A stretch of 13,034 nucleotides of DNA from a virus (taxonomy: Duplodnaviria; Heunggongvirae; Uroviricota; Caudoviricetes), in the IMG/VR virus record IMGVR_UViG_638341084_000022, one strand, 5' to 3'. The notes beneath the pieces were generated by a model. It saw nothing but the letters and a program-made list of their open reading frames with translations. It was not told the origin of the DNA and searched no databases. How positions within the stretch are numbered: the first letter of the stretch is position 1; every line of letters begins with the position of its first letter. Position numbers and translations under genes: made by a program. Shown in pieces: positions 823 through 11,771 of the stretch.

Positions 823-876
823 TGGCCGTTTCCGGCCTGCATGGCATGATTTGCGCTTTTGGACGGGAGATTCAGT

Positions 877-1467
877 GTGCTGATTGGTTATGTAAGGGTA
901 TCAACAAATGACCAGAATACAGACCTGCAACGAAACGCTCTTGTTTGTGCAGGATGTGAACAAATATTTGAAGATAAATTAAGCGGAACAAAGACAGACC
1001 GACCGGGATTAAAACGCGCTTTAAAGCAGCTTCAAAAAGGTGACACGCTGGTTGTCTGGAAACTGGATCGCCTTGGGCGAAGCATGAAACATCTGATTTC
1101 TCTCGTCGGAGAACTACGGGAGCGAGGGATTAATTTTCGCAGTCTGACCGACAGCATAGATACATCTTCTCCAATGGGGCGTTTTTTCTTCCACGTGATG
1201 GGTGCCCTGGCTGAAATGGAACGTGAATTAATTGTTGAACGTACACTGGCCGGACTGGCGGCAGCGCGCGCACGGGGGCGCACAGGCGGACGTCGACCGA
1301 AGCTGACAAAAGAACAGCATGAGCAAATAGCAAGGCTGATTAAAAACGGTCACGACAGAAAACAACTGGCAATAATTTACAGCATTGGTATATCGACAAT
1401 TTATCGTTACCACCCCGCAGGAGAATCAAGTGGAACAATTGAGAAGAGTAAACAAAATAACCGCTAA
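877..1467 (+). CDS. serine DNA invertase, Gin/Pin/Cin/Hin family
   Basis: Translation from GTG 877 is MLIGYVRVSTNDQNTDLQRNALVCAGCEQIFEDKLSGTKTDRPGLKRALKQLQKGDTLVVWKLDRLGRSMKHLISLVGELRERGINFRSLTDSIDTSSPMGRFFFHVMGALAEMERELIVERTLAGL..., nearly colinear with Gin/Pin as recalled, including the catalytic Ser in the VST motif. A GGGAGA Shine-Dalgarno sits 6 nt upstream of GTG 877. The ORF-track start at TTG 859 is probably too far upstream. Confidence 0.92.
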   Translation: MLIGYVRVSTNDQNTDLQRNALVCAGCEQIFEDKLSGTKTDRPGLKRALKQLQKGDTLVVWKLDRLGRSMKHLISLVGELRERGINFRSLTDSIDTSSPMGRFFFHVMGALAEMERELIVERTLAGLAAARARGRTGGRRPKLTKEQHEQIARLIKNGHDRKQLAIIYSIGISTIYRYHPAGESSGTIEKSKQNNR

Positions 1468-1996: not shown

Positions 1997-4819
1997 TCAA
2001 TCTTTATCGTAAAAACTGCCACGCCCGGCACGGGCGCGCCGTTCCATTTCTGCCCTGACCATTTCGCCAATCAGTTTCGCCAGTTCGCGGGGATTCTGTG
2101 TAACAACGTTATGCAGATGAACATGAATTTCACCGCAAAATCCGGAGGCAACAGGCTCCCGGTTACGGGAAGTTGCAGGAACTGATGCCACTGGCGATCG
2201 TATAGCCTCCGCCACCGGGCGGGAGCTGGCCGCAACAACAGGGACCAGCGCCGGAGGCAGCGGAGCCGGAACCACGGGTGTGATAGTAATTGCGGGGGCA
2301 GGCTTACTGACCTGCGCAATCTTCCGCTCCTGCCACTCCCCACGAACAGCAAGTGCGCGGGGCAGGTTCTTAAAGACAATATCGCCGGGGCCAATGCGTT
2401 TTTTCGTCTCATCAACCAGCTTACCTGTGTTATCAGCAATTTTGCTGAGTCTGCGTAGCGTACCGGTATTGTTGTCTGTGAGCGGTTTGTTGTCTCTGGG
2501 TTTATCGCCTTTTTTGTCGTCGACCTTATCTGACGGGGCCGGGCCGGGAGTCCATGGTTTCTGAACCATTTTCTTGAGAACCGGATCCCATTCCCACATT
2601 ACAGGAGCCTTTGAAGCGTTCTCTATTTTCTTTCTCGCCCGTTCCGCTTCATCCGGAAGCACTCCGAGCTTTTCAAGTATCCACGCCAGTGAATCCATCA
2701 ATGCTTTTGTTGGCGTCAGGACAAGCTCTATCGCTCCACCGAGTACCCTGCCGAATACCTCGCCAGCACTGGTACATTTATCCAGCGTTTCCTTGCTGGA
2801 CTCCATCGGTGACAGCAGCGATTTAAACCAGTTAAAGACCTGAATAATCCCATCGCGCACGACATCAAAAACTGGACCGAACCGTTCAAAGGTTTCGCGC
2901 AACGGAGCCAGCCGTTCCATAATCCCACTGAACACCCCTGCATAAAACGCCTTGATGGGTTCCCAGTATTTCCAGATGAGAACCGCCGCAGCCACAAACG
3001 CAGCAGCAATCAATCCGACCGGGCTGAACAGCGCCCCGATAGCGCCCCCCAGTAACGAAACGGAACCCGTCACCATTCCCCATAGTGCTGGCAGGAGCCT
3101 GACAGCATTCATTGATCCGGTCAGGAGGGAAAAGCCAAGACGCAGTTTTGCCAGCGGGCCAGCAAGCACACCAATAGCCAACGACAACGAGCCGACCGTT
3201 GCAGTCATCGCCAGCAATGCCCCACCTGCAATCAGTAGCTGGCGCGTCAGTGCCGGATGGGCCTGCGCCAGCGCCGTCACCTTTGATACCACCCGCGTGA
3301 GCCACTGCGTGACAGAACGCAGCGGACCGTCAATCAGATCTGCAATGCGGATGCGCAACCCTTCCCATGCACTGCCGAGTGATTTCAGATCGCCGTCAAG
3401 GTTGTTGGCCATAACCTTTGCTGTGCGTTCAGCCTCACCGCGCGCGCCTTCAAGTTCTTTTCTCAGTTTGGGTAAGGAGCCGTCACCCGCTGCATCAACG
3501 AGCGCCATAAACGATGTGAAAGCCTCTTCTCCGGCAATGTCCTTAAAGAACGATACCCGGTCAACTTCCCCGTATTTGCGGGTGGCTTTATAAAGGTCGG
3601 CCAGTACATCCTCCATCGGGCGCATTTTGCCGTTCGCGTCAGAGACAGCCACACCCAGCTCTTTCAGCGCCTCTGCTGCCGCCTTTGGCGGTGATGCCAG
3701 ACGAGCCAGGCTGGCACGCATTGCCGTCCCGGCATCACTCCCTCTGATGCCCATATTCGCCAGCACGCCCGCCATCGCAGCGGCCTGCTCCAGCGATATT
3801 CCCAGCTTACCCGCCACCGGACCTGCATATTTCATGGTTTCGCCCAGCGCGCGAAGGTCAGTGTTGGTACGGGTAAACGCCGCTGTAAGCGTGTCGCCAA
3901 CCCGGTCCATCTGGTCAGCAGAGAGGCCGAACTGCGTCAGGATATTTGAGCCAATATCCGCCGTCTCGCCGAGATCCATACCGCCAGCCGTTGCCATGCT
4001 CAGCACGCCGGGAAGCGCAGCCTGAATGGCCTGCGGAGTAAAACCAGCCATTGCAAGAAATGCCTGTCCACTGGCGGCATCTCCAGCGGTGAACTGCGTT
4101 TCAGAGCCAAGTTTTAACGCCTGCTCACGCAGCGCCTTAAACTGTGGGCTGTTTTTGTCGATTCGCGTCAGTGCCTGAACGCGGGACATCTCTTTCCCGA
4201 ACCCAATCGCGGGCTGCAAAAAACGCCCGGCAGCATAGCCGCCCGCCGCTGCCGCACCTGTTGCCAGTGCACCACCTGTTTTCAGTTTTCCCGCGGTTTC
4301 CTGCGCGCGCGAATACCGCTCACGCGCCCGCGTTACACGCGCAAGCGCCTGCCGTTCGCGTTCAAGCTGGTTGTTGTACTGTTCGGTGCGTCTGATGGCC
4401 TGTTGAATGGTGTTATCGCTGCCTGTCAGGGAAATGCCGTGGCGTTTCAGCTCTCCGCCAAGCTCCCGCATTTTCTGAATCTCCCGTGTGCGCGATTCAT
4501 TCAGGCGTTCAAGCCGGGTGCTTAACTGCTGCATCAGCTTTTGTTGTTTTTCGCTGAGCACTGTACCCGTGTGTTGTAACTGATTAAGGGCGTTAAGCTG
4601 GCGTCGAGCTTTCAATATGCCAGCATCCGCTTTACTGACAGCGTCACGGGCGCGCTCAAATGAACGCGCCTGACGCTCGAGATTTTTGATCGCCCCCTGC
4701 GTTCGCTGGATGGAGTCACCAAACTGCCCCATCAGGCGGCGGGCGTTTTCGGCAGGCCGGGTCAGCCTGTCAACGGCGCTGAAAGCGACCCGGATATCAA
4801 GAGTCTTCATTGTCTGCAT
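1997..4819 (-). CDS. T: phage tail tape measure protein (P2 gpT-like)
   Basis: A 940-949 aa ORF with coiled-coil N-terminal part and the conserved central tape-measure region (...LTQFGLSADQMDRVGDTLTAAFTRTNTDLRALGETMKYAGPVAGKLGISLEQAAAMAGVLANMGIRGSDAGTAMRA...). It sits between the chaperone E/E' and U. Start is uncertain: GTG 4846, ATG 4819 or ATG 4810 are all possible, and the 5' end overlaps the end of the E' frame. Confidence 0.9.
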   Translation of the reverse strand: MQTMKTLDIRVAFSAVDRLTRPAENARRLMGQFGDSIQRTQGAIKNLERQARSFERARDAVSKADAGILKARRQLNALNQLQHTGTVLSEKQQKLMQQLSTRLERLNESRTREIQKMRELGGELKRHGISLTGSDNTIQQAIRRTEQYNNQLERERQALARVTRARERYSRAQETAGKLKTGGALATGAAAAGGYAAGRFLQPAIGFGKEMSRVQALTRIDKNSPQFKALREQALKLGSETQFTAGDAASGQAFLAMAGFTPQAIQAALPGVLSMATAGGMDLGETADIGSNILTQFGLSADQMDRVGDTLTAAFTRTNTDLRALGETMKYAGPVAGKLGISLEQAAAMAGVLANMGIRGSDAGTAMRASLARLASPPKAAAEALKELGVAVSDANGKMRPMEDVLADLYKATRKYGEVDRVSFFKDIAGEEAFTSFMALVDAAGDGSLPKLRKELEGARGEAERTAKVMANNLDGDLKSLGSAWEGLRIRIADLIDGPLRSVTQWLTRVVSKVTALAQAHPALTRQLLIAGGALLAMTATVGSLSLAIGVLAGPLAKLRLGFSLLTGSMNAVRLLPALWGMVTGSVSLLGGAIGALFSPVGLIAAAFVAAAVLIWKYWEPIKAFYAGVFSGIMERLAPLRETFERFGPVFDVVRDGIIQVFNWFKSLLSPMESSKETLDKCTSAGEVFGRVLGGAIELVLTPTKALMDSLAWILEKLGVLPDEAERARKKIENASKAPVMWEWDPVLKKMVQKPWTPGPAPSDKVDDKKGDKPRDNKPLTDNNTGTLRRLSKIADNTGKLVDETKKRIGPGDIVFKNLPRALAVRGEWQERKIAQVSKPAPAITITPVVPAPLPPALVPVVAASSRPVAEAIRSPVASVPATSRNREPVASGFCGEIHVHLHNVVTQNPRELAKLIGEMVRAEMERRARAGRGSFYDKD

Positions 4820-5335
4820 TCCCGCTGCGAAGTGCCGCCCGCTCACGCCAGCTAACCACTTCGCCGGGCGTCATCATGAAGATTTCGGCGGGCGACCAGT
4901 TAAAAATAACGGCAATATCCGCCACCAGATCTTCGATGTGCTCAAAGCACACCAGGGTGATTACGCTGCCGTCTCCTGCACGCTCTTCGCGCCAGAGTCT
5001 GGCTCGCTCATAAAATTTACAGCCACAGCGCACAACTGAATAAAATCGCGTGACGACATTTTTTTAATCATCACTTCATCCAGTCGTGGCGAGGTCACGC
5101 GAGGCAACAGCGTGAACATGGTATCCGCTTTCAGATTCAGCACATCAGACAGCGACAGACCACGCAGGGATCCAGCCTGTTCAATAGCCCCGGTGATCTC
5201 CACATACGTGATTTTTTCGCCACCACGCTCAATGGGTCGGGTCAGTTTTACGCCATGTTCGACAGCCATATCCTCACCTGCCGTCACATCATCCGCCACG
5301 GTGTTATTCCGGGTTTCAGTATCGATGTCTTTCAT
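4797..5335 (-). CDS. E': gpE+E' tail assembly chaperone, programmed -1 frameshift fusion product (shift at the A7 tract 5065-5059)
   Basis: The -1 frame relative to E opens immediately after a TAA at 5066-5064 and runs to a stop at 4799-4797, overlapping the T start. The shift site AUU AAA AAA AUG is at codons 91-92 of E. Position between tail tube and tape measure matches the conserved G/GT-type frameshift of tailed phages (P2 E/E'). Confidence 0.55.
4961..5335 (-). CDS. E: gpE-like tail assembly chaperone (zero-frame product)
   Basis: A 124-aa acidic ORF with a strong AAGGAG Shine-Dalgarno upstream of ATG 5335, located between FII and T as in P2. Confidence 0.7.
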   Translation of the reverse strand: MKDIDTETRNNTVADDVTAGEDMAVEHGVKLTRPIERGGEKITYVEITGAIEQAGSLRGLSLSDVLNLKADTMFTLLPRVTSPRLDEVMIKKMSSRDFIQLCAVAVNFMSEPDSGAKSVQETAA

Positions 5336-5390: not shown

Positions 5391-5903
5391 TCAGCCAAGC
5401 CCAAGCGCGGAACGGATACGGTCAGGCACAATGTCCTTGCCGTCCTTCCGGTAGATGTGGTTCAACAGGTCGATTTCCCACAGCGGGCGATCGTTAACGC
5501 TCAGCTTGTAGTAGGTGTTTTTGACAGCGTAAGTGTGTGATGTGGCTTCGCCCTGTTTGGCCTCCCCCATATCAATTTCCGTCACACGCCCGCGCATCTC
5601 GATTTCATACAGATCGCTTTCTGCATCGGTGTAGTATTCACCCGCAAAACGCAGCAGCGTGCCGTCAATCGTGCCGCCATATTTAAGGAACAGCGCACGA
5701 ACAGCTCCCCCCATAACAAAACTCGCATCAAGCGCGGAGTCGTCCAGACCGAGATCAATACTTACCGCCCCCATCATGCCACCACCACGATAGCTGTCGG
5801 TTTTGCGCGTCAGTTTGGGCGGCGTGACGGACGTCACCTTACCCACTTCGTTTTCACCATCCACAAACAGCGTAAAAAAGCGAAGATGTTTTGGTACAGC
5901 CAT
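5391..5903 (-). CDS. FII: phage tail tube protein (P2 gpFII-like)
   Basis: A 170-aa ORF (MAVPKHLRFFTLFVDGENEVGKVTSVTPPKLTRKTDSYRGGGMMGAVSIDLGLDD...) that resembles P2 FII as recalled, in both length and motifs. Its start codon overlaps the FI stop (TGATG). Confidence 0.9.
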   Translation of the reverse strand: MAVPKHLRFFTLFVDGENEVGKVTSVTPPKLTRKTDSYRGGGMMGAVSIDLGLDDSALDASFVMGGAVRALFLKYGGTIDGTLLRFAGEYYTDAESDLYEIEMRGRVTEIDMGEAKQGEATSHTYAVKNTYYKLSVNDRPLWEIDLLNHIYRKDGKDIVPDRIRSALGLG

Positions 5904-7087
5904 CAGGCACCTCCCAGCACCGCAAATGCGGGACCAAAGAATTCATCAGTAAACGACTGGTAAAGCTCCATGTCTTCCAGCGGCGGAACGGGCGTATATT
6001 TGTAGCGAATACGCACACGCCCCTGACGTAAATTCGTGGTGCTGTTATCCACGATGTCATACCAGCACTCCGCGCCAATCAGTTTCCCGGCAGTAACCAG
6101 TGAATCCAGTTTTGCCCTGATGGCACTGATAACATCCTTCACGTTCGCAGGCGTCAGTGGACTGTCGATGGTTTCAAACTGCGCTTCCGCAATTGAATCA
6201 GCCAGCACCTGTGCGGTTCGGGTATACACCTCAAAAATGTAGGCGTTCGTTTCCGGTGTGCGGTTGCCCCAGAAGCGGAACCCGTTGCGACGAATAATGG
6301 TCGTGATTTCTTTGTTGTTGAGGCTGTTGGCATCGCTGTCTTCGGCCTGCAACGACCAGAACACATGCCTCGACATCCCCAGCACATTTTTAACCGGAAC
6401 GTTGGACAGCGATTTGTGCCAGCCCTGCTCATGGTCAATGTACGCACGAAGGCCGCACGCATAAGCAGGCGCGGGGAACGTTTCGTTTTCGCCACTTTTC
6501 GGGTTGTAGGCGATGAAGTCCGGCCATAAGAGCATCACTTCACGTTCGTTGAATTTCTGGCGGTAGGTAATCGCTTCAGCCATCGTGTTACAGCCGTGAC
6601 ATGAGGCATACACAAATGCGCGCAGTTTACCCGCAATCACGCACAGGGATTTTGTCACCGCCTCCGTGTCCAGCTCCGGCGCGGCCAGAATACGCGGACG
6701 GTATCCGATGCTTTCATCCTGCTCTGCAACAAGCAGCGCATACATCCCCGTATAGCTGCCGTCATCCTCAGAACCACCGATAACCAGTTGATCCTGCGTC
6801 TTTCCGTCTTCTTCTTTGTGTTCAGCCACGCGAACGACGATCACCTTTGTGCTCACCTGGTCTGCGATGGCCTTAAGCGCACGATAAAGCGTCCCCGTTG
6901 TTCCGCATTTTCCCAGCACGTCATTGACGCGGGTCAGCAGTGTGGGCTTGTTCAGCGGGAACAGCTTCGCGTCCGCATCATCCGCCGTTGCCACGATACC
7001 GATAACGCTGGAATCAACATCGTTAATCGCTGTTACCAGGTCGGTATTTTCCGTAACACGGGCACCATGAAAACGAGTTTCACTCAT
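5903..7087 (-). CDS. FI: phage contractile tail sheath protein (P2 gpFI-like)
   Basis: A 394-aa ORF with motifs I recall from P2 FI (...KLRAFVYASCHG..., ...WPDFIAYNP..., ...GWHKSLSNVPV..., ...IRRNGFRFWGNRT..., ...YKYTPVPPLEDM...). Confidence 0.92.
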   Translation of the reverse strand: MSETRFHGARVTENTDLVTAINDVDSSVIGIVATADDADAKLFPLNKPTLLTRVNDVLGKCGTTGTLYRALKAIADQVSTKVIVVRVAEHKEEDGKTQDQLVIGGSEDDGSYTGMYALLVAEQDESIGYRPRILAAPELDTEAVTKSLCVIAGKLRAFVYASCHGCNTMAEAITYRQKFNEREVMLLWPDFIAYNPKSGENETFPAPAYACGLRAYIDHEQGWHKSLSNVPVKNVLGMSRHVFWSLQAEDSDANSLNNKEITTIIRRNGFRFWGNRTPETNAYIFEVYTRTAQVLADSIAEAQFETIDSPLTPANVKDVISAIRAKLDSLVTAGKLIGAECWYDIVDNSTTNLRQGRVRIRYKYTPVPPLEDMELYQSFTDEFFGPAFAVLGGA

Positions 7088-7243
7088 AGCTTCAGCCCCT
7101 TGTATCCGTTAAATGATTCGGCAACAATCATCACCCACCACGCGCGTAATCTCACCCCTGCGCCGTTCTCCCGACCCGGCGACAACAAAAAGCAGTAACC
7201 CCCTCCGCACGCACATGCGACCATGCCGCACAGGGAGGGAAAG

Positions 7244-8353
7244 ATGACCGACACCACCATGCAATTGCTCAGTCAGAGCACAGACCCCGTGAAAATGCCG
7301 GATTTTGATATTCTCGCGGAGGGTAAAACGCTGTCAGGCGTGGCAGAGCGCCTGATGAGCCTGTCACTGACCGACAACCGGGGATTTGAAGCGGACCAGC
7401 TCACCATCACGCTGGATGATGCGGATGGTCAGTTGCAGCTACCGCCACGGGGCGCGCGCCTGACGGTTCTCATTGGCTGGAAAGGCGAACCGCTGACAGA
7501 AAAAGGCTCTTACATTGTCGATGAAATCGCACACGAAGGACCGCCGGACAGGCTGACTGTTTCAGCCAGAAGCGCAGATTTTCGGGATGAATTTAACGTT
7601 AAACGTGAGGTGTCCTGGCATGATGTGACCGTTGAGCGTGTGGTATCCGCCATCGCTCATCGGTACGGTCTGAAACCGCAAATCAGCGAAATGCTGATGC
7701 ATATCGAAATCGACCACGCCGACCAGACCGAAGAAAGTGACATGTCCTTCCTTACGCGCATGGCGGAAATGCTGGGCGCAATCACCACGGTAAAAAGCGG
7801 TAATCTGTTATTCATCATGCCCGGCGGTGGCGTGAACGCACAGGGCCAGCCGTTGCCATCGTTCGCCATCACACGCAGCAGCGGCGATCGCCATCAGTTC
7901 CGCATTGCTGACCGCGAGGCGTATACGGGGGTACGCGCTTACTGGCTTGATCTTAATTACGGGAAAAAGAAAAAAGTCAGCGTGAAACGCCGCAAACCGC
8001 CAAAACCCAAAAAGGAGAAAAGCAGCAGCCGTGAAGGTGATTATATGGAAGGCGCGGAAGGCAATGTGTTTGTGTTACGCAAGACTTATCAGAACGAGCA
8101 GGCAGCAAGACGCGCAGCGGCGGCAAAGTGGCAGCAGCTACAACGCGGAGCCGCATCATTCTCCATCATGCTGGCACGCGGACGCGCAGAACTCTACCCC
8201 GAAATGCATGGCACGGTAACAGGCTTTAAAAGCGAGATTGATAATCAGGACTGGATTATTGCAAAAGCCGAGCACACCATTGATAACAGCGGCTTTACCA
8301 CACAGCTTGAGCTTGAGGCAAAAATCCCGGAATGGATAGCAGAAACAGAGTGA
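7244..8353 (+). CDS. D: P2 gpD-like tail protein (late gene D), full length
   Basis: Translation (...LSLTDNRGFEADQLTITLDDADGQ..., ...VDEIAHEGPPDRLTVSARSADFRDEFNVKREVSWHD..., ...DREAYTGVRAYWLD..., ...GEYMAGEA-like GDYMEGAEGNVF...) is colinear with P2 gpD as recalled. The second ATG at 7244 has a GGGAGGG Shine-Dalgarno; the ORF-track start at 7223 is probably too far upstream. Confidence 0.88.
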   Translation: MTDTTMQLLSQSTDPVKMPDFDILAEGKTLSGVAERLMSLSLTDNRGFEADQLTITLDDADGQLQLPPRGARLTVLIGWKGEPLTEKGSYIVDEIAHEGPPDRLTVSARSADFRDEFNVKREVSWHDVTVERVVSAIAHRYGLKPQISEMLMHIEIDHADQTEESDMSFLTRMAEMLGAITTVKSGNLLFIMPGGGVNAQGQPLPSFAITRSSGDRHQFRIADREAYTGVRAYWLDLNYGKKKKVSVKRRKPPKPKKEKSSSREGDYMEGAEGNVFVLRKTYQNEQAARRAAAAKWQQLQRGAASFSIMLARGRAELYPEMHGTVTGFKSEIDNQDWIIAKAEHTIDNSGFTTQLELEAKIPEWIAETE

Positions 8354-8473: not shown

Positions 8474-9496
8474 TTAATACGCATTTAATTTAAATTTGTA
8501 TTTGCCTTCTATGTAATGGATAAATTCAATTATGCTTTTTTCTATCGCATCTAATATATGAATATATCCATCCCGATTTAAGGTCCTATCCAACTCAAAG
8601 TGATGAACTATCCCATGTCTATATTGTATGATTTCAGAAATTCGATTCTCAAGAAAATCAACTGATTTTCCAATTCTTTTTTTCTTATAAAGAATCGCTC
8701 TCACATCTATATCCAGCCACTCTTTATATGCTTTATTTAGGTGGGTTAAGTTTTGAAAAGTGTAATTTCTTGCAATAACACTTTCTATTGAAATATTTCC
8801 TTTCTCTATCTCAAGCAGAATATCAAAATCAACTTTTTGCTTATACGATGTTCTTTTTGCTATTGCGAAAGGATCGTACTTTATAAGTATTTGAAAAGCT
8901 CTAGAGAAAAAATATTCAAACATAGCAACCGCAAAAGGTACTAATCCATTATATATAACTCTACTGGGATCCATACATTGCATGTAATCAAAGTATTCGG
9001 ATAAGCCGCCATCTTCCGGTAGGTTTAATTTAATAGAAGGTTCAGGTAAGGCATGTTTAACAGCGGAAATCTCATGATGGACATGATTAAATATTGAAGA
9101 AATGCCACGACTGATCGGACTACTAGAATCCTTCCATAGAGGAGCGTACCTATTTTTCCCATAATCACCTATAAGTGTTCCACCAAAAAGACTCCGTGCG
9201 CCTTTTAGAACATCATTAAGCATTTTTACATCATGCCAACTAGCGCTATATAAATTACGCACATGCAATGCCCATTTATTACCAGATATGTGTAGTTCGT
9301 CATTTGAAACAGGATATATATCAGCCGAAACTCCATCTGTAGATTTGAAGTCCGTATCATCAAACCAAGAGTAATTCAACGTTCCTTGGGGCCATTCCCA
9401 CAAATGTTTACACCTTTTAAAACCTAAATTTTCAAGGTAATTTTTAAGTTCGTTTCTAGTTGCTTTTTTAGGGTACAGCGTTATATCTCTTCCCAT
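8474..9496 (-). CDS. hypothetical protein, AT-rich cargo gene inserted between D and ogr; possible HEPN-like C-terminal domain
   Basis: An uninterrupted 340-codon ORF with an AGGTGA Shine-Dalgarno about 8 nt upstream of ATG 9496. It is visibly more AT-rich than the flanking tail genes and uses AGA/ATA codons. The C-terminal region has an R-x4-H arrangement (QYRHGIVHH, residues 293-298, nt 8620-8603) followed by a predicted final helix, as in HEPN nuclease domains. I recognise no family with confidence. Confidence 0.75.
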   Translation of the reverse strand: MGRDITLYPKKATRNELKNYLENLGFKRCKHLWEWPQGTLNYSWFDDTDFKSTDGVSADIYPVSNDELHISGNKWALHVRNLYSASWHDVKMLNDVLKGARSLFGGTLIGDYGKNRYAPLWKDSSSPISRGISSIFNHVHHEISAVKHALPEPSIKLNLPEDGGLSEYFDYMQCMDPSRVIYNGLVPFAVAMFEYFFSRAFQILIKYDPFAIAKRTSYKQKVDFDILLEIEKGNISIESVIARNYTFQNLTHLNKAYKEWLDIDVRAILYKKKRIGKSVDFLENRISEIIQYRHGIVHHFELDRTLNRDGYIHILDAIEKSIIEFIHYIEGKYKFKLNAY

Positions 9497-9687: not shown

Positions 9688-9948
9688 ATGTTCCGTTGTC
9701 CGCTTTGTGCCGCATCTGCCCGTATCCGCACAAGTCGTCCGGAAAATGATTCAAACACCGTGCGGCAAAAATATTACCAGTGTAACAATCTGGAATGCGG
9801 CGTATGCTTCTCAACACTGGAAGCTTTCCATAAATTCACATCGAAACACGCCTCCGGCGTTCACTCTTCAGAAGGTATCCCGTGGCATGAGCTACCAGCT
9901 TCACACAGGGGAAACAATCAGATGAGTTTGCCTTTACCTAAGAATTAA
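9688..9948 (+). CDS. ogr: Ogr/Delta-family zinc-finger late transcription activator
   Basis: MFRCPLCAASARIRTSRPENDSNTVRQKYYQCNNLECGVCFSTLEAF... carries the C-x2-C...C-x4-C zinc-binding pattern and the RTSR motif I recall from P2 Ogr. An AAGGGAGG Shine-Dalgarno sits 5 nt upstream, with a TACAAT -10-like hexamer at 9645-9650. Location downstream of D matches P2. Confidence 0.85.
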   Translation: MFRCPLCAASARIRTSRPENDSNTVRQKYYQCNNLECGVCFSTLEAFHKFTSKHASGVHSSEGIPWHELPASHRGNNQMSLPLPKN

Positions 9949-10540: not shown

Positions 10541-10873
10541 ATGGCATTAATCAAATGTCCTGAATGCCAGAAAGAGGTGAGCGATTCAGCATTGTATTGC
10601 CCTGCTTGCGGTAAACAAATAAAAAAACTTAAGCGTTCATTTTTTGGAAAGCTCATTAAGTGGATTTTTATATTATTTAATATTTTTATGATCTATACGC
10701 TTTTAGTTGGACTGGGAGGCACTAGTGAAATAATAAATAATGCAACATCCGATGCCGAAAAAGCCGGTGTAGTTATTGGTACAGGCTTAGGTTTAATTAC
10801 CATTGGAAGTTTATGGGTTATTGGCGATATCATTATCGGAATTTTAGTGTTTCTTACTAAACCAAAAGGATAA
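10541..10873 (+). CDS. small zinc-ribbon membrane protein (CxxC-x10-CxxC N-terminus, two predicted TM helices)
   Basis: MALIKCPECQKEVSDSALYCPACGK..., followed by two hydrophobic stretches (IKWIFILFNIFMIYTLLVGLGG and VVIGTGLGLITIGSLWVIGDIIIGILVFL). An AGGAGG Shine-Dalgarno sits 8 nt upstream. The gene is AT-rich. Confidence 0.7.
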   Translation: MALIKCPECQKEVSDSALYCPACGKQIKKLKRSFFGKLIKWIFILFNIFMIYTLLVGLGGTSEIINNATSDAEKAGVVIGTGLGLITIGSLWVIGDIIIGILVFLTKPKG

Positions 10874-10877
10874 CAAA

Positions 10878-11771
10878 ATGAAAAATATAATTTTTTCTAT
10901 AGGTGCATCATTTATATCAATTAGTGTACTGCCTGTTCACGCAGCAACTGAACATAATAACTTCAATGCAGTACTCCAGTGCCGAGCAATAGAAAATAAT
11001 AAAGACAGACTTTCTTGTTACGATAAGTCAATACAACCGACTCGAACGAAAGTTGCTGAAAAATTCGAAAGCAGAGATCAATGCCCTGATGAGAAAGATG
11101 ATGACAGACGTTTATCTTGTTATGATCGTTTTTTTTCTCCAACATTTACTCCATCTGTAAACTCAAAATCTAAAACGGAAAAGCCAGTAACAACAGAGGC
11201 TCAGCAACCAAATCTTTCTGAGATATCTAAATGCCGAGCAGAAAATGATAAAGAAGCCAGACTAAACTGCTACGATAAACTATTCCCACAGGATAAAGCT
11301 GTTCAAGCTGAATCAAAATTAGAGAAAGCCACAGATGTAGGAAAATGGCACACATCCATTACTACATCGCCAATTGATGATTCGAAAAATGTAATTTTAT
11401 CGTTAGAAAGTGATGATTATATCAGAACTCCATTTGGAGAAGCGGTTACTCCTACTCTGTTTATAGCTTGCCGAGAAAAGAAAACCGAAGTATTTCTTAG
11501 TTGGGATGTATATTTAGGCCTTGAACAAACCAGCATGCTTTATCGTCTTGATAAACAGAAAGCAGTTGAGCGAAACTGGCTAGTATCTACAGATACAAAG
11601 GCTGTTTTTTATAAAGGTAATGACATTGATTTCATCCGAAAACTAGCCAACTCAAACAAAATGTATACAAAAATAACTCCTTATAATGAGAGCCCTGTAA
11701 GTGCAACTTTCAATTTAAACGGCCTGTCAAACGCGCTAAAACCACTTCAAGCTGCTTGTAACTGGAAATAG
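10878..11771 (+). CDS. secreted protein with three tandem Cys-containing repeats (C-x8-RL[SN]CYD[KR]) and a C-terminal domain of unknown function
   Basis: Sec-type signal peptide (MKNIIFSIGASFISISVLPVHA / ATE). Repeats lie at residues 35-50, 69-84 and 119-134 (nt 10980-11279). It starts 4 nt after the zinc-ribbon gene stop, with an AAGGA Shine-Dalgarno, so is likely co-transcribed. The gene is AT-rich. Confidence 0.75.
   Translation: MKNIIFSIGASFISISVLPVHAATEHNNFNAVLQCRAIENNKDRLSCYDKSIQPTRTKVAEKFESRDQCPDEKDDDRRLSCYDRFFSPTFTPSVNSKSKTEKPVTTEAQQPNLSEISKCRAENDKEARLNCYDKLFPQDKAVQAESKLEKATDVGKWHTSITTSPIDDSKNVILSLESDDYIRTPFGEAVTPTLFIACREKKTEVFLSWDVYLGLEQTSMLYRLDKQKAVERNWLVSTDTKAVFYKGNDIDFIRKLANSNKMYTKITPYNESPVSATFNLNGLSNALKPLQAACNWK

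Follow-up and report, generated by a model that had tools for sequence, protein, structure and literature searches.

A P2-type −1 frameshift site predicted at A_AAT_TTT in the tail-chaperone genes E/E' of a P88-like Escherichia coli prophage

The overlapping tail genes E and E' in this DNA are probably expressed through a P2-type −1 ribosomal frameshift at the heptamer A_AAT_TTT (positions 5018-5012), which would give rise to both E and an E+E' fusion; we place the probability of this reading at roughly 80%. The mechanism is already known from the E/E+E' type of phage P2, and the new part is a minor variant of the heptamer. A preliminary description of the same DNA had proposed an E/E' tail-chaperone −1 frameshift on a run of seven adenosines (A7). 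A P2-type E, a GpE' domain and a −1 shift remain the best reading of the locus, but the assignment to A7 does not stand: comparison among relatives indicates that this run is almost certainly not the programmed shift site. Throughout, "the window" refers to the whole stretch of DNA analyzed, 13,034 nucleotides in length.

The tail operon and the predicted fusion

Pfam and PHROG matches, gene order, and the closest phage records identify an FI-FII-E/E'-T-U tail operon in the window, belonging to a P88-like E. coli prophage (Xuanwuvirus, Peduoviridae, P2 family). The relevant features are as follows.

7223-8353, opposite strand to the tail operon: gene D, outside the operon
5903-7087: tail sheath gene FI (Pfam)
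5391-5903, minus strand: tail tube gene FII, directly 5' of E (Pfam Phage_tube, 2.1e-45)
4961-5335, minus strand: gene E, zero-frame tail assembly chaperone of 124 aa, from ATG at 5335 to TAA at 4963-4961
5059-5065, minus strand: A7 run, encoding Lys91-Lys92 and the first base of Met93; the tract flagged earlier, almost certainly not the programmed shift site
5012-5018, minus strand: predicted −1 slippery heptamer A_AAT_TTT (P-site codon Asn107, A-site codon Phe108), followed by ATG in place of the TTG of relatives
4797-5012, minus strand: E' segment in the −1 frame, 71 codons plus the TGA at 4799-4797
join(5335..5012, 5012..4797), minus strand: predicted E+E', 179 aa
1997-4810, minus strand: gene T, tape measure (Pfam PhageMin_Tail, 2.3e-58)
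1496-1990: gene for GpU (Pfam)

Gene E is flanked by FII (tube) and T (tape measure), all three on the minus strand. Its product shares 34.8% identity with P2 E over residues 26-114 (tblastn, E value 2e-7) and matches phrog_103, annotated as "tail protein" (1.2e-36); the match to Pfam Phage_TAC_7 is weak, at 20.6 bits and below the cutoff of 25. The E' segment matches Pfam Phage_P2_GpE (2e-12, 46.8 bits against a cutoff of 23) and phrog_1756 (2.3e-38). Searches against NCBIfam returned no match for either E or E'. The start of T was chosen from annotated homologues and the sequence; from its ATG at 4810-4808, T shares 14 nt with the end of E', and the full open reading frame spans 1997-4846. 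Among phage DNAs, the closest are Citrobacter phage PhiSM and Xuanwuvirus P88_4B11 (98-99% identical), with P88 itself at 87%. The exact E protein was found on 144 contigs, from E. coli wherever the source names a host. The E/E' region is also widespread, occurring in 1,374 of 5,426 complete E. coli genomes (about a quarter), with approximately 600 of the genomes at or above 95% identity.

We infer both the occurrence of frameshifting in the window's clade and the identity of the slipping tRNAs from sequence. In the proposed mechanism, most ribosomes would read E to its stop codon and yield the 124-aa chaperone. A minority would slip one base back at A_AAU_UUU, with the P-site tRNA-Asn re-pairing from AAU to AAA and the A-site tRNA-Phe from UUU to UUU. 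Shifted ribosomes would then read UAU GAG CGA and onward in the −1 frame to the TGA at 4799-4797, and the resulting 179-aa E+E' would carry the P2 GpE' domain at its C-terminus. By analogy with P2 E/E+E' and lambda G/GT, the two products would serve as tape-measure/tail-assembly chaperones made in a fixed ratio. A T>A substitution in this lineage (TTG, Leu, to ATG, Met) would have destroyed the P2-like heptamer, leaving an overlapping heptamer one codon upstream to carry the shift. The predicted fusion comprises 108 + 71 = 179 aa with the junction ...AVAVNF|YERARLW, and the tryptic junction peptide expected from a shift at the heptamer is DFIQLCAVAVNFYER. Neither this fusion nor the one predicted for a shift at A7 had an exact match in a collection of 15 billion proteins.

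The heptamer across P2-like relatives

Within the overlap of E and the −1 frame, A_AAT_TTT is the sole in-phase heptamer of the X_XXY_YYZ form. We compared it across 83 loci of the window's clade (98-100% identity) and 80 loci of the P88 clade from IMG/VR, and drew polymorphisms from 44 unique haplotypes of the window's clade. The heptamer is invariant in 83/83 loci of the window's clade. It aligns with the annotated T_TTT_TTG of P2 (L084:940-946) at the x-Phe-Leu column, and A_AAT_TTT is the positional homologue of the P2 site. The window codons are GTA AAT TTT ATG (Val-Asn-Phe-Met), and those of P88 are GTA AAT TTT TTG, a site composed of two overlapping heptamers, A_AAT_TTT and T_TTT_TTG. 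The literal P2 TTTTTTG is absent from the window (AAT TTT ATG), the T6G having been broken by the T>A (Leu>Met) change in all 83 clade loci. This loss alters the sequence of the site and leaves its position and type as they were. The P88 clade (87% identical) has in common with the window the genes, the A7 Lys-Lys run and the GTA AAT TTT core. The two differ in that P88 has the double heptamer A_AAT_TTT_TTG and a −1 frame closed by TGA, whereas the window has TTT ATG and a −1 frame open back to A7.

An initial search returned only relatives at 98-100% identity. We assembled 17 more diverse relatives (from Escherichia, Klebsiella, Enterobacter, Serratia, Yersinia, Salmonella, Burkholderia, Aeromonas, Mannheimia, and Zymomonas) from a phage collection and from searches with the E proteins of relatives. 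The x-Phe-(Leu) column near the end of E was occupied by T_TTT_TTG in 14/17, by T_TTT_TTT in one and by C_CCT_TTC in another; the Mannheimia relative was the exception, with G_GGA_AAG further downstream. In 7/17 just 4-5 open −1-frame codons precede the heptamer, and this short stretch locates the shift site there. Fusions constructed at the heptamers of these relatives align collinearly, and the 142 aa of P2 E+E' is reproduced. Throughout the phiT5282H clade the site is C_CCT_TTT_TT(G/A) or T_TTT_TT(G/A).

A second lineage lacking T6G was found among Reipivirus-like Klebsiella loci. Here, GTC CCT TTC TTG occurs in 59/60 loci: a synonymous TTT>TTC change has removed T6G, and C_CCT_TTC is kept. 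These loci were retrieved with a Kp4850-1 E query whose first ~36 residues were improvised, and the identities obtained with it are underestimates; tblastn over residues 17-116 confirmed the matches, and the heptamer itself was taken straight from their DNA. The Kp4850-1 clade thus resembles that of the window in keeping the overlapping upstream heptamer at the same column. It differs in its P-site codon, which is CCT (Pro) and not AAT (Asn), and in having lost T6G synonymously rather than by Leu>Met.

Lambda, a siphovirus, uses G_GGA_AAG as its G/GT heptamer. P2 E/E+E' is the myovirus counterpart of lambda G/GT. The lambda proteins have no detectable sequence homology to the E/E' of the window. 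For P2, PMC3091744 (citing Christie 2002 and Xu 2004) and the NC_001895 annotation give T_TTT_TTG as experimentally established, with a 91-aa E and a 142-aa E+E'. Every P2-type feature tested here was found in the window, with the exception of the literal TTTTTTG. The likeness extends to the FII-E-T position, homologous E and E' domains, the −1 frame relation, the x-Phe-Leu shift column and an E' that ends at the start of T, with no downstream RNA structure evident; P2-like sites were likewise reported without downstream RNA structure (PMC3091744). The differences are of detail. The P2 heptamer T_TTT_TTG has Phe in the P site, whereas A_AAT_TTT has Phe in the A site and lies one codon further 5'. 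The E of the window is 124 aa against 91 in P2, its zero-frame tail past the shift is 16 codons against 6, and the fusion is 179 aa against 142. Gene D is outside the tail operon in the window, unlike the P2 arrangement.

The heptamer could also be used in another way. tRNA-Phe might slip by itself on U_UUU, from the P site while AUG occupies the A site or as a Z_ZZN tetramer in the A site, and no re-pairing of tRNA-Asn would then be needed; we consider this unlikely, although several observations lend it some weight. Under stimulation, U_UU.U ranks third among the 16 tetramers for shifting in E. coli, at 0.80% (Sharma 2014); the Phe codon concerned also occupies the P site at T_TTT_TTG in P2, and the re-pairing of tRNA-Asn from AAU to AAA involves a wobble mismatch. 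With the IS3 stimulator, however, the heptamer A_AAU_UUU shifts at 11.4% compared with 0.8% for the tetramer (Sharma 2014), and therefore the AAA context helps. AAA preceding TTT is also invariant in both Xuanwuvirus clades despite synonymous options for GTA (Val) and AAT (Asn), and C_CCT_TTC TTG of the Reipivirus lineage is retained even though it is less able to use a P-site U_UUC slip. Tandem and single-tRNA slippage yield an identical protein, ...NF|YER....

Production of E' with no frameshift at all, by initiation at an internal GTG at 5033 (78-aa ORF) or near 4952 (51-aa ORF), is very improbable. Such ORFs do exist, and the 51-aa form is annotated by RefSeq/PGAP and in phage records; in all annotations inspected for the clade, E' is a separate 51-aa "GpE family phage tail protein" with no E-E' join. 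Neither GTG, however, has a Shine-Dalgarno sequence at a usable distance, the nearest GGAG being ~20 nt upstream of GTG 4952 when read by eye. The −1 peptide is moreover conserved between clades upstream of the 51-aa start, beginning just past the heptamer (LWREERAGDGS / VWSIERGGDGE / AWSVERGGDGE), and members of the family keep a slippery heptamer at precisely this position. P2 itself makes an E+E' fusion that begins at the E start (PMC3091744; NC_001895 annotation). We rejected independent initiation of E' on two of these grounds, the absence of a Shine-Dalgarno sequence at either GTG and the conservation of the peptide upstream of the annotated start.

The A7 run

The sequence facts first noted for A7 hold. 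The run occupies 5065-5059 on the minus strand, within codons 90-93 (ATT AAA AAA ATG, 5068-5057), and a TAA at 5066-5064 in the −1 frame is followed by 87 open codons to the TGA at 4799-4797, overlapping the T start. Product lengths of 179 aa for E+E' and 124 aa for E were also correctly given, a −1 shift anywhere in the overlap resulting in 179 aa. The same description had voiced doubts over the phase of the heptamer and over the 32 codons by which zero-frame E extends past A7, and both were justified. The heptamer in phase is the non-classical U_AAA_AAA; the zero-frame phase of the run itself is AAA_AAA_A, which departs from the in-phase X_XXY_YYZ pattern of an A-run shift site. The predicted site, A_AAT_TTT, lies 47 nt downstream of A7, inside that extension.

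Nowhere do the sequence features of A7 exceed chance. The window contains nine A7/T7 runs against 6.2 ± 3.2 expected, a count reached in 48/200 shuffles. The TAA at 5066-5064 is a mere Ile-Lys codon junction, AT[T AA]A, and the chance that the −1 frame stays open over the 15 codons to the heptamer is about one in two, (61/64)^15.

Programmed shifting at A7 would proceed by a −1 slip of tRNA-Lys or by insertion of an extra A by RNA polymerase, to give a 179-aa product with the junction K-K-N-V-V. We regard this as highly improbable. The −1 frame is indeed open from after the TAA at 5066-5064 into E', both in the window and in 80/83 loci of its clade. In addition, tRNA-Lys(UUU) is intrinsically shifty, and an in-phase A_AAA_AAA shifts well when stimulated in reporters (Sharma 2014). 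The relatives tell against it. In 80/80 loci of the P88 clade from IMG/VR, A7 is retained and a −1-frame TGA follows four codons later; P88 itself reads ATC AAA AAA ATG, with the −1 frame closed by TGA between A7 and the heptamer. The same TGA arises in three loci of the window's own clade (L018, L021, and L023) through CGC>CGT at Arg96, which leaves the E protein unchanged. The polymorphisms lying between A7 and codon 106 are 5/5 synonymous in frame 0 (P ~6e-4) and 0/5 in frame −1, where they are nonsynonymous or nonsense, as counted per site among unique haplotypes that are not phylogenetically independent events. The frame −1 pattern in this interval is that expected without constraint. A shift at A7 would also exchange a conserved E segment, MSSRDFIQLCAVAVNF, which aligns with LELPDLVALAGKVVGF of P2, for the unconserved NVVTRFYSVVRCGCKF. 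The distant relatives have no A-run at the A7 position, and in 7/17 the −1 frame is closed there.

Reporter data and run length point the same way. In E. coli, the A-site tetramer A_AAA shifts at 0.125% unstimulated and at 0.256% with a strong pseudoknot, values at about background (Sharma 2014, Table S2). Efficient transcriptional slippage in bacteria involves runs of ~9 A/T, equal to the length of the RNA-DNA hybrid, or a hairpin in the nascent RNA as context (PMC5009743); A7 is shorter than such runs. The resemblance to the A-run sites of dnaX and insertion sequences (A_AAA_AAG) is superficial, with the A residues here encoding Lys-Lys. Compared with those sites and with A9/T9 slippage, the run in the window is only 7 bases long, lies out of phase, and closes with A UG instead of AAG; it is accompanied neither by a stimulator nor by a conserved open −1 frame downstream in relatives.

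Taken together, the comparative data largely refute the A7 model. A7 simply encodes Lys-Lys. In the allele of the window, A7 may still make a minor, adventitious contribution distinct from the conserved, selected event; a minor share is compatible with the frame architecture because the −1 frame of the window is open from A7.

Function of the variant site and its implications

Evidence that the variant heptamer is functional comes from E' itself. Among the 44 haplotypes, 14/20 polymorphisms in E' are silent in the −1 frame, where 22% would be expected (P ~7e-6, counted in the same way as those near A7). This pattern indicates that E' is under purifying selection and, by extension, expressed in the window's clade. 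PhiSM (L001) has an identical AAATTTTATG site and is a fully functional, plaque-forming temperate phage (PMC6456863). That the T>A change abolished frameshifting and left E' as a relic in defective prophages is thus scarcely credible: the canonical P2 heptamer is missing from the clade and no stimulatory structure was found downstream of the heptamer, but E' is under strong purifying selection, the variant is fixed in 83/83 loci, the region is present at no less than 95% identity in ~600 complete E. coli genomes, PhiSM forms plaques with the same site, and a canonical heptamer, A_AAT_TTT, remains in the window. The selection on E' and the viability of PhiSM were the grounds on which the defective-prophage explanation was rejected.

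A search for stimulators around the heptamer gave negative results. The 87 nt after the heptamer fold like shuffled sequences (z = −1.11), and an alifold consensus of eight sequences reached −1.09 kcal/mol with no credible helix, indicating no conserved structure downstream. Inspection by eye for an upstream Shine-Dalgarno-like stimulator found nothing consistent across clades.

Reporter measurements in E. coli provide a scale for the two heptamers (Sharma 2014, Table S3). For A_AAU_UUU the rate was 0.070% unstimulated, 0.355% when the IS911 stimulators were present and 11.4% when the IS3 pseudoknot was used; the P2 heptamer U_UUU_UUG gave 0.118, 0.247, and 0.765% in the same three contexts. 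The unstimulated 0.07% of A_AAU_UUU is near the reporter background (Sharma 2014). Motifs of the form R_RR.U_UU.Y were described as exceptions that stay shift-prone (Sharma 2014).

These comparisons raise a wider, tentative suggestion, to which we give somewhat less than even odds. In P2-like sites of the form X_XXT_TTT_TTG, such as A_AAT_TTT_TTG of P88 and C_CCT_TTT_TTG of phiT5282H, slippage may take place on the upstream X_XXU_UUU and not on U_UUU_UUG. We suggest this because the window's clade and the Reipivirus clade dropped T6G independently and kept the upstream heptamer, and because A_AAU_UUU, C_CCU_UUU, and C_CCU_UUC were 15-30 times shiftier than U_UUU_UUG with a strong stimulator in E. 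coli reporters. If this is true, the window's clade would offer a natural "minimal" site in which to study the tuning of a tail-chaperone frameshift that appears to lack a stimulator.

There are also practical consequences for annotation. Everywhere inspected, E/E' is recorded as two genes, a "tail protein" or "hypothetical protein" and the 51-aa GpE protein, with no frameshift product; placing the site at 5018-5012 would give the correct 179-aa E+E' product. Motif searches keyed to the P2 TTTTTTG or to homopolymer runs would miss this clade or select the wrong site. The apparent replacement of U_UUU_UUG by an overlapping upstream heptamer in two lineages suggests that, in this phage family, slippery sites can drift while the junction column stays fixed.

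Gene order and accessory genes

Beyond the tail chaperone gene, we examined the organization of the window, in which the order of genes is unlike that of the FETUD operon of P2. The features concerned are as follows.

Genes around the tail operon of the window
859-1467, + strand: resolvase-type DNA invertase (Pfam Resolvase, 1e-50), adjoining U
7223-8353, + strand: GPD baseplate hub gene (D), on the opposite strand to the tail operon and upstream of FI
8474-9496, - strand: 340-aa ORF, flanked by gene D and by the Ogr/Delta activator gene
9688-9948: Ogr/Delta activator gene
10541-10873: small zinc-ribbon ORF, preceding the VasI-family gene
10878-11771, + strand: type VI secretion protein of the VasI family (Pfam VasI, 2.6e-25), beyond ogr

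The sole match of the 340-aa ORF was to RiboL-PSP HEPN (1.2e-4), weak and below threshold (22.5 bits; cut-off, 28.4 bits); this ORF may be an accessory or defence gene of the prophage. The VasI-family gene and the zinc-ribbon ORF presumably lie in DNA of the host, or else in cargo, at the end of the prophage.

Annotations of related P2-type genes were at times inconsistent with gene identity. In the record of Citrobacter phage PhiSM (OR565851.1), the sheath gene carries the label "late control gene D protein," and two RefSeq phage records (L002 and L003) name FII, the tube gene, "head closure." PhiSM virions have been described as siphovirus-like with non-contractile tails (PMC6456863), a description at odds with the P2-type sheath encoded in the PhiSM genome.

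Sequence conservation and length variation around the shift site

Located 30-45 nt downstream of the heptamer at which the -1 slip is predicted, the nucleotide block GG(C/A)GGAGACGG(A/C)(G/A) (window about 4985-4972, - strand) is near-invariant among clades that diverge elsewhere. The block, within which GGAG lies, codes for AETE in frame 0 and for GGDGE or AGDGS in frame -1, and its near-invariance probably reflects dual-coding constraint.

Length variants were observed at and near the shift site. A single relative, L237 (IMGVR_UViG_2822731401_000001), carries T5 (CCTTTTTAGC) at this position, whereas its siblings (e.g., L230) carry T6 (CCTTTTTTAGC). The shorter run shifts the frames and places TAG directly after Phe; either the homopolymer was misread in sequencing or the slippery run has undergone a natural indel. 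In a metagenomic, Reipivirus-like locus (L296, IMGVR_UViG_3300031110_000632), an indel 5' of the shift site places the N-terminal part of E in direct continuity with the -1 frame, and the resulting ORF of 151 aa has E' at its end. Misassembly is the probable origin of this ORF, although it could also represent a pre-fused form that occurs naturally.

A CRISPR match and recombination within E

Within the E' coding region, 34 nt (window 4842-4875) match NZ_CM183652.1 4375146-4375179 at 100% identity, an interval labelled "CRISPR" in E. coli strain GmM066. The GmM066 match may be a spacer targeting the window's prophage family.

A mosaic E gene was found in E. coli SE11 (NC_011415.1 1958308-1959458). 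The N-terminal half resembles the corresponding part of the gene in the window clade; the C-terminal half is P88-like, including TTT TTG and the -1-frame TGA after the A7 run. This structure indicates exchange between these two Xuanwuvirus clades by recombination within E.
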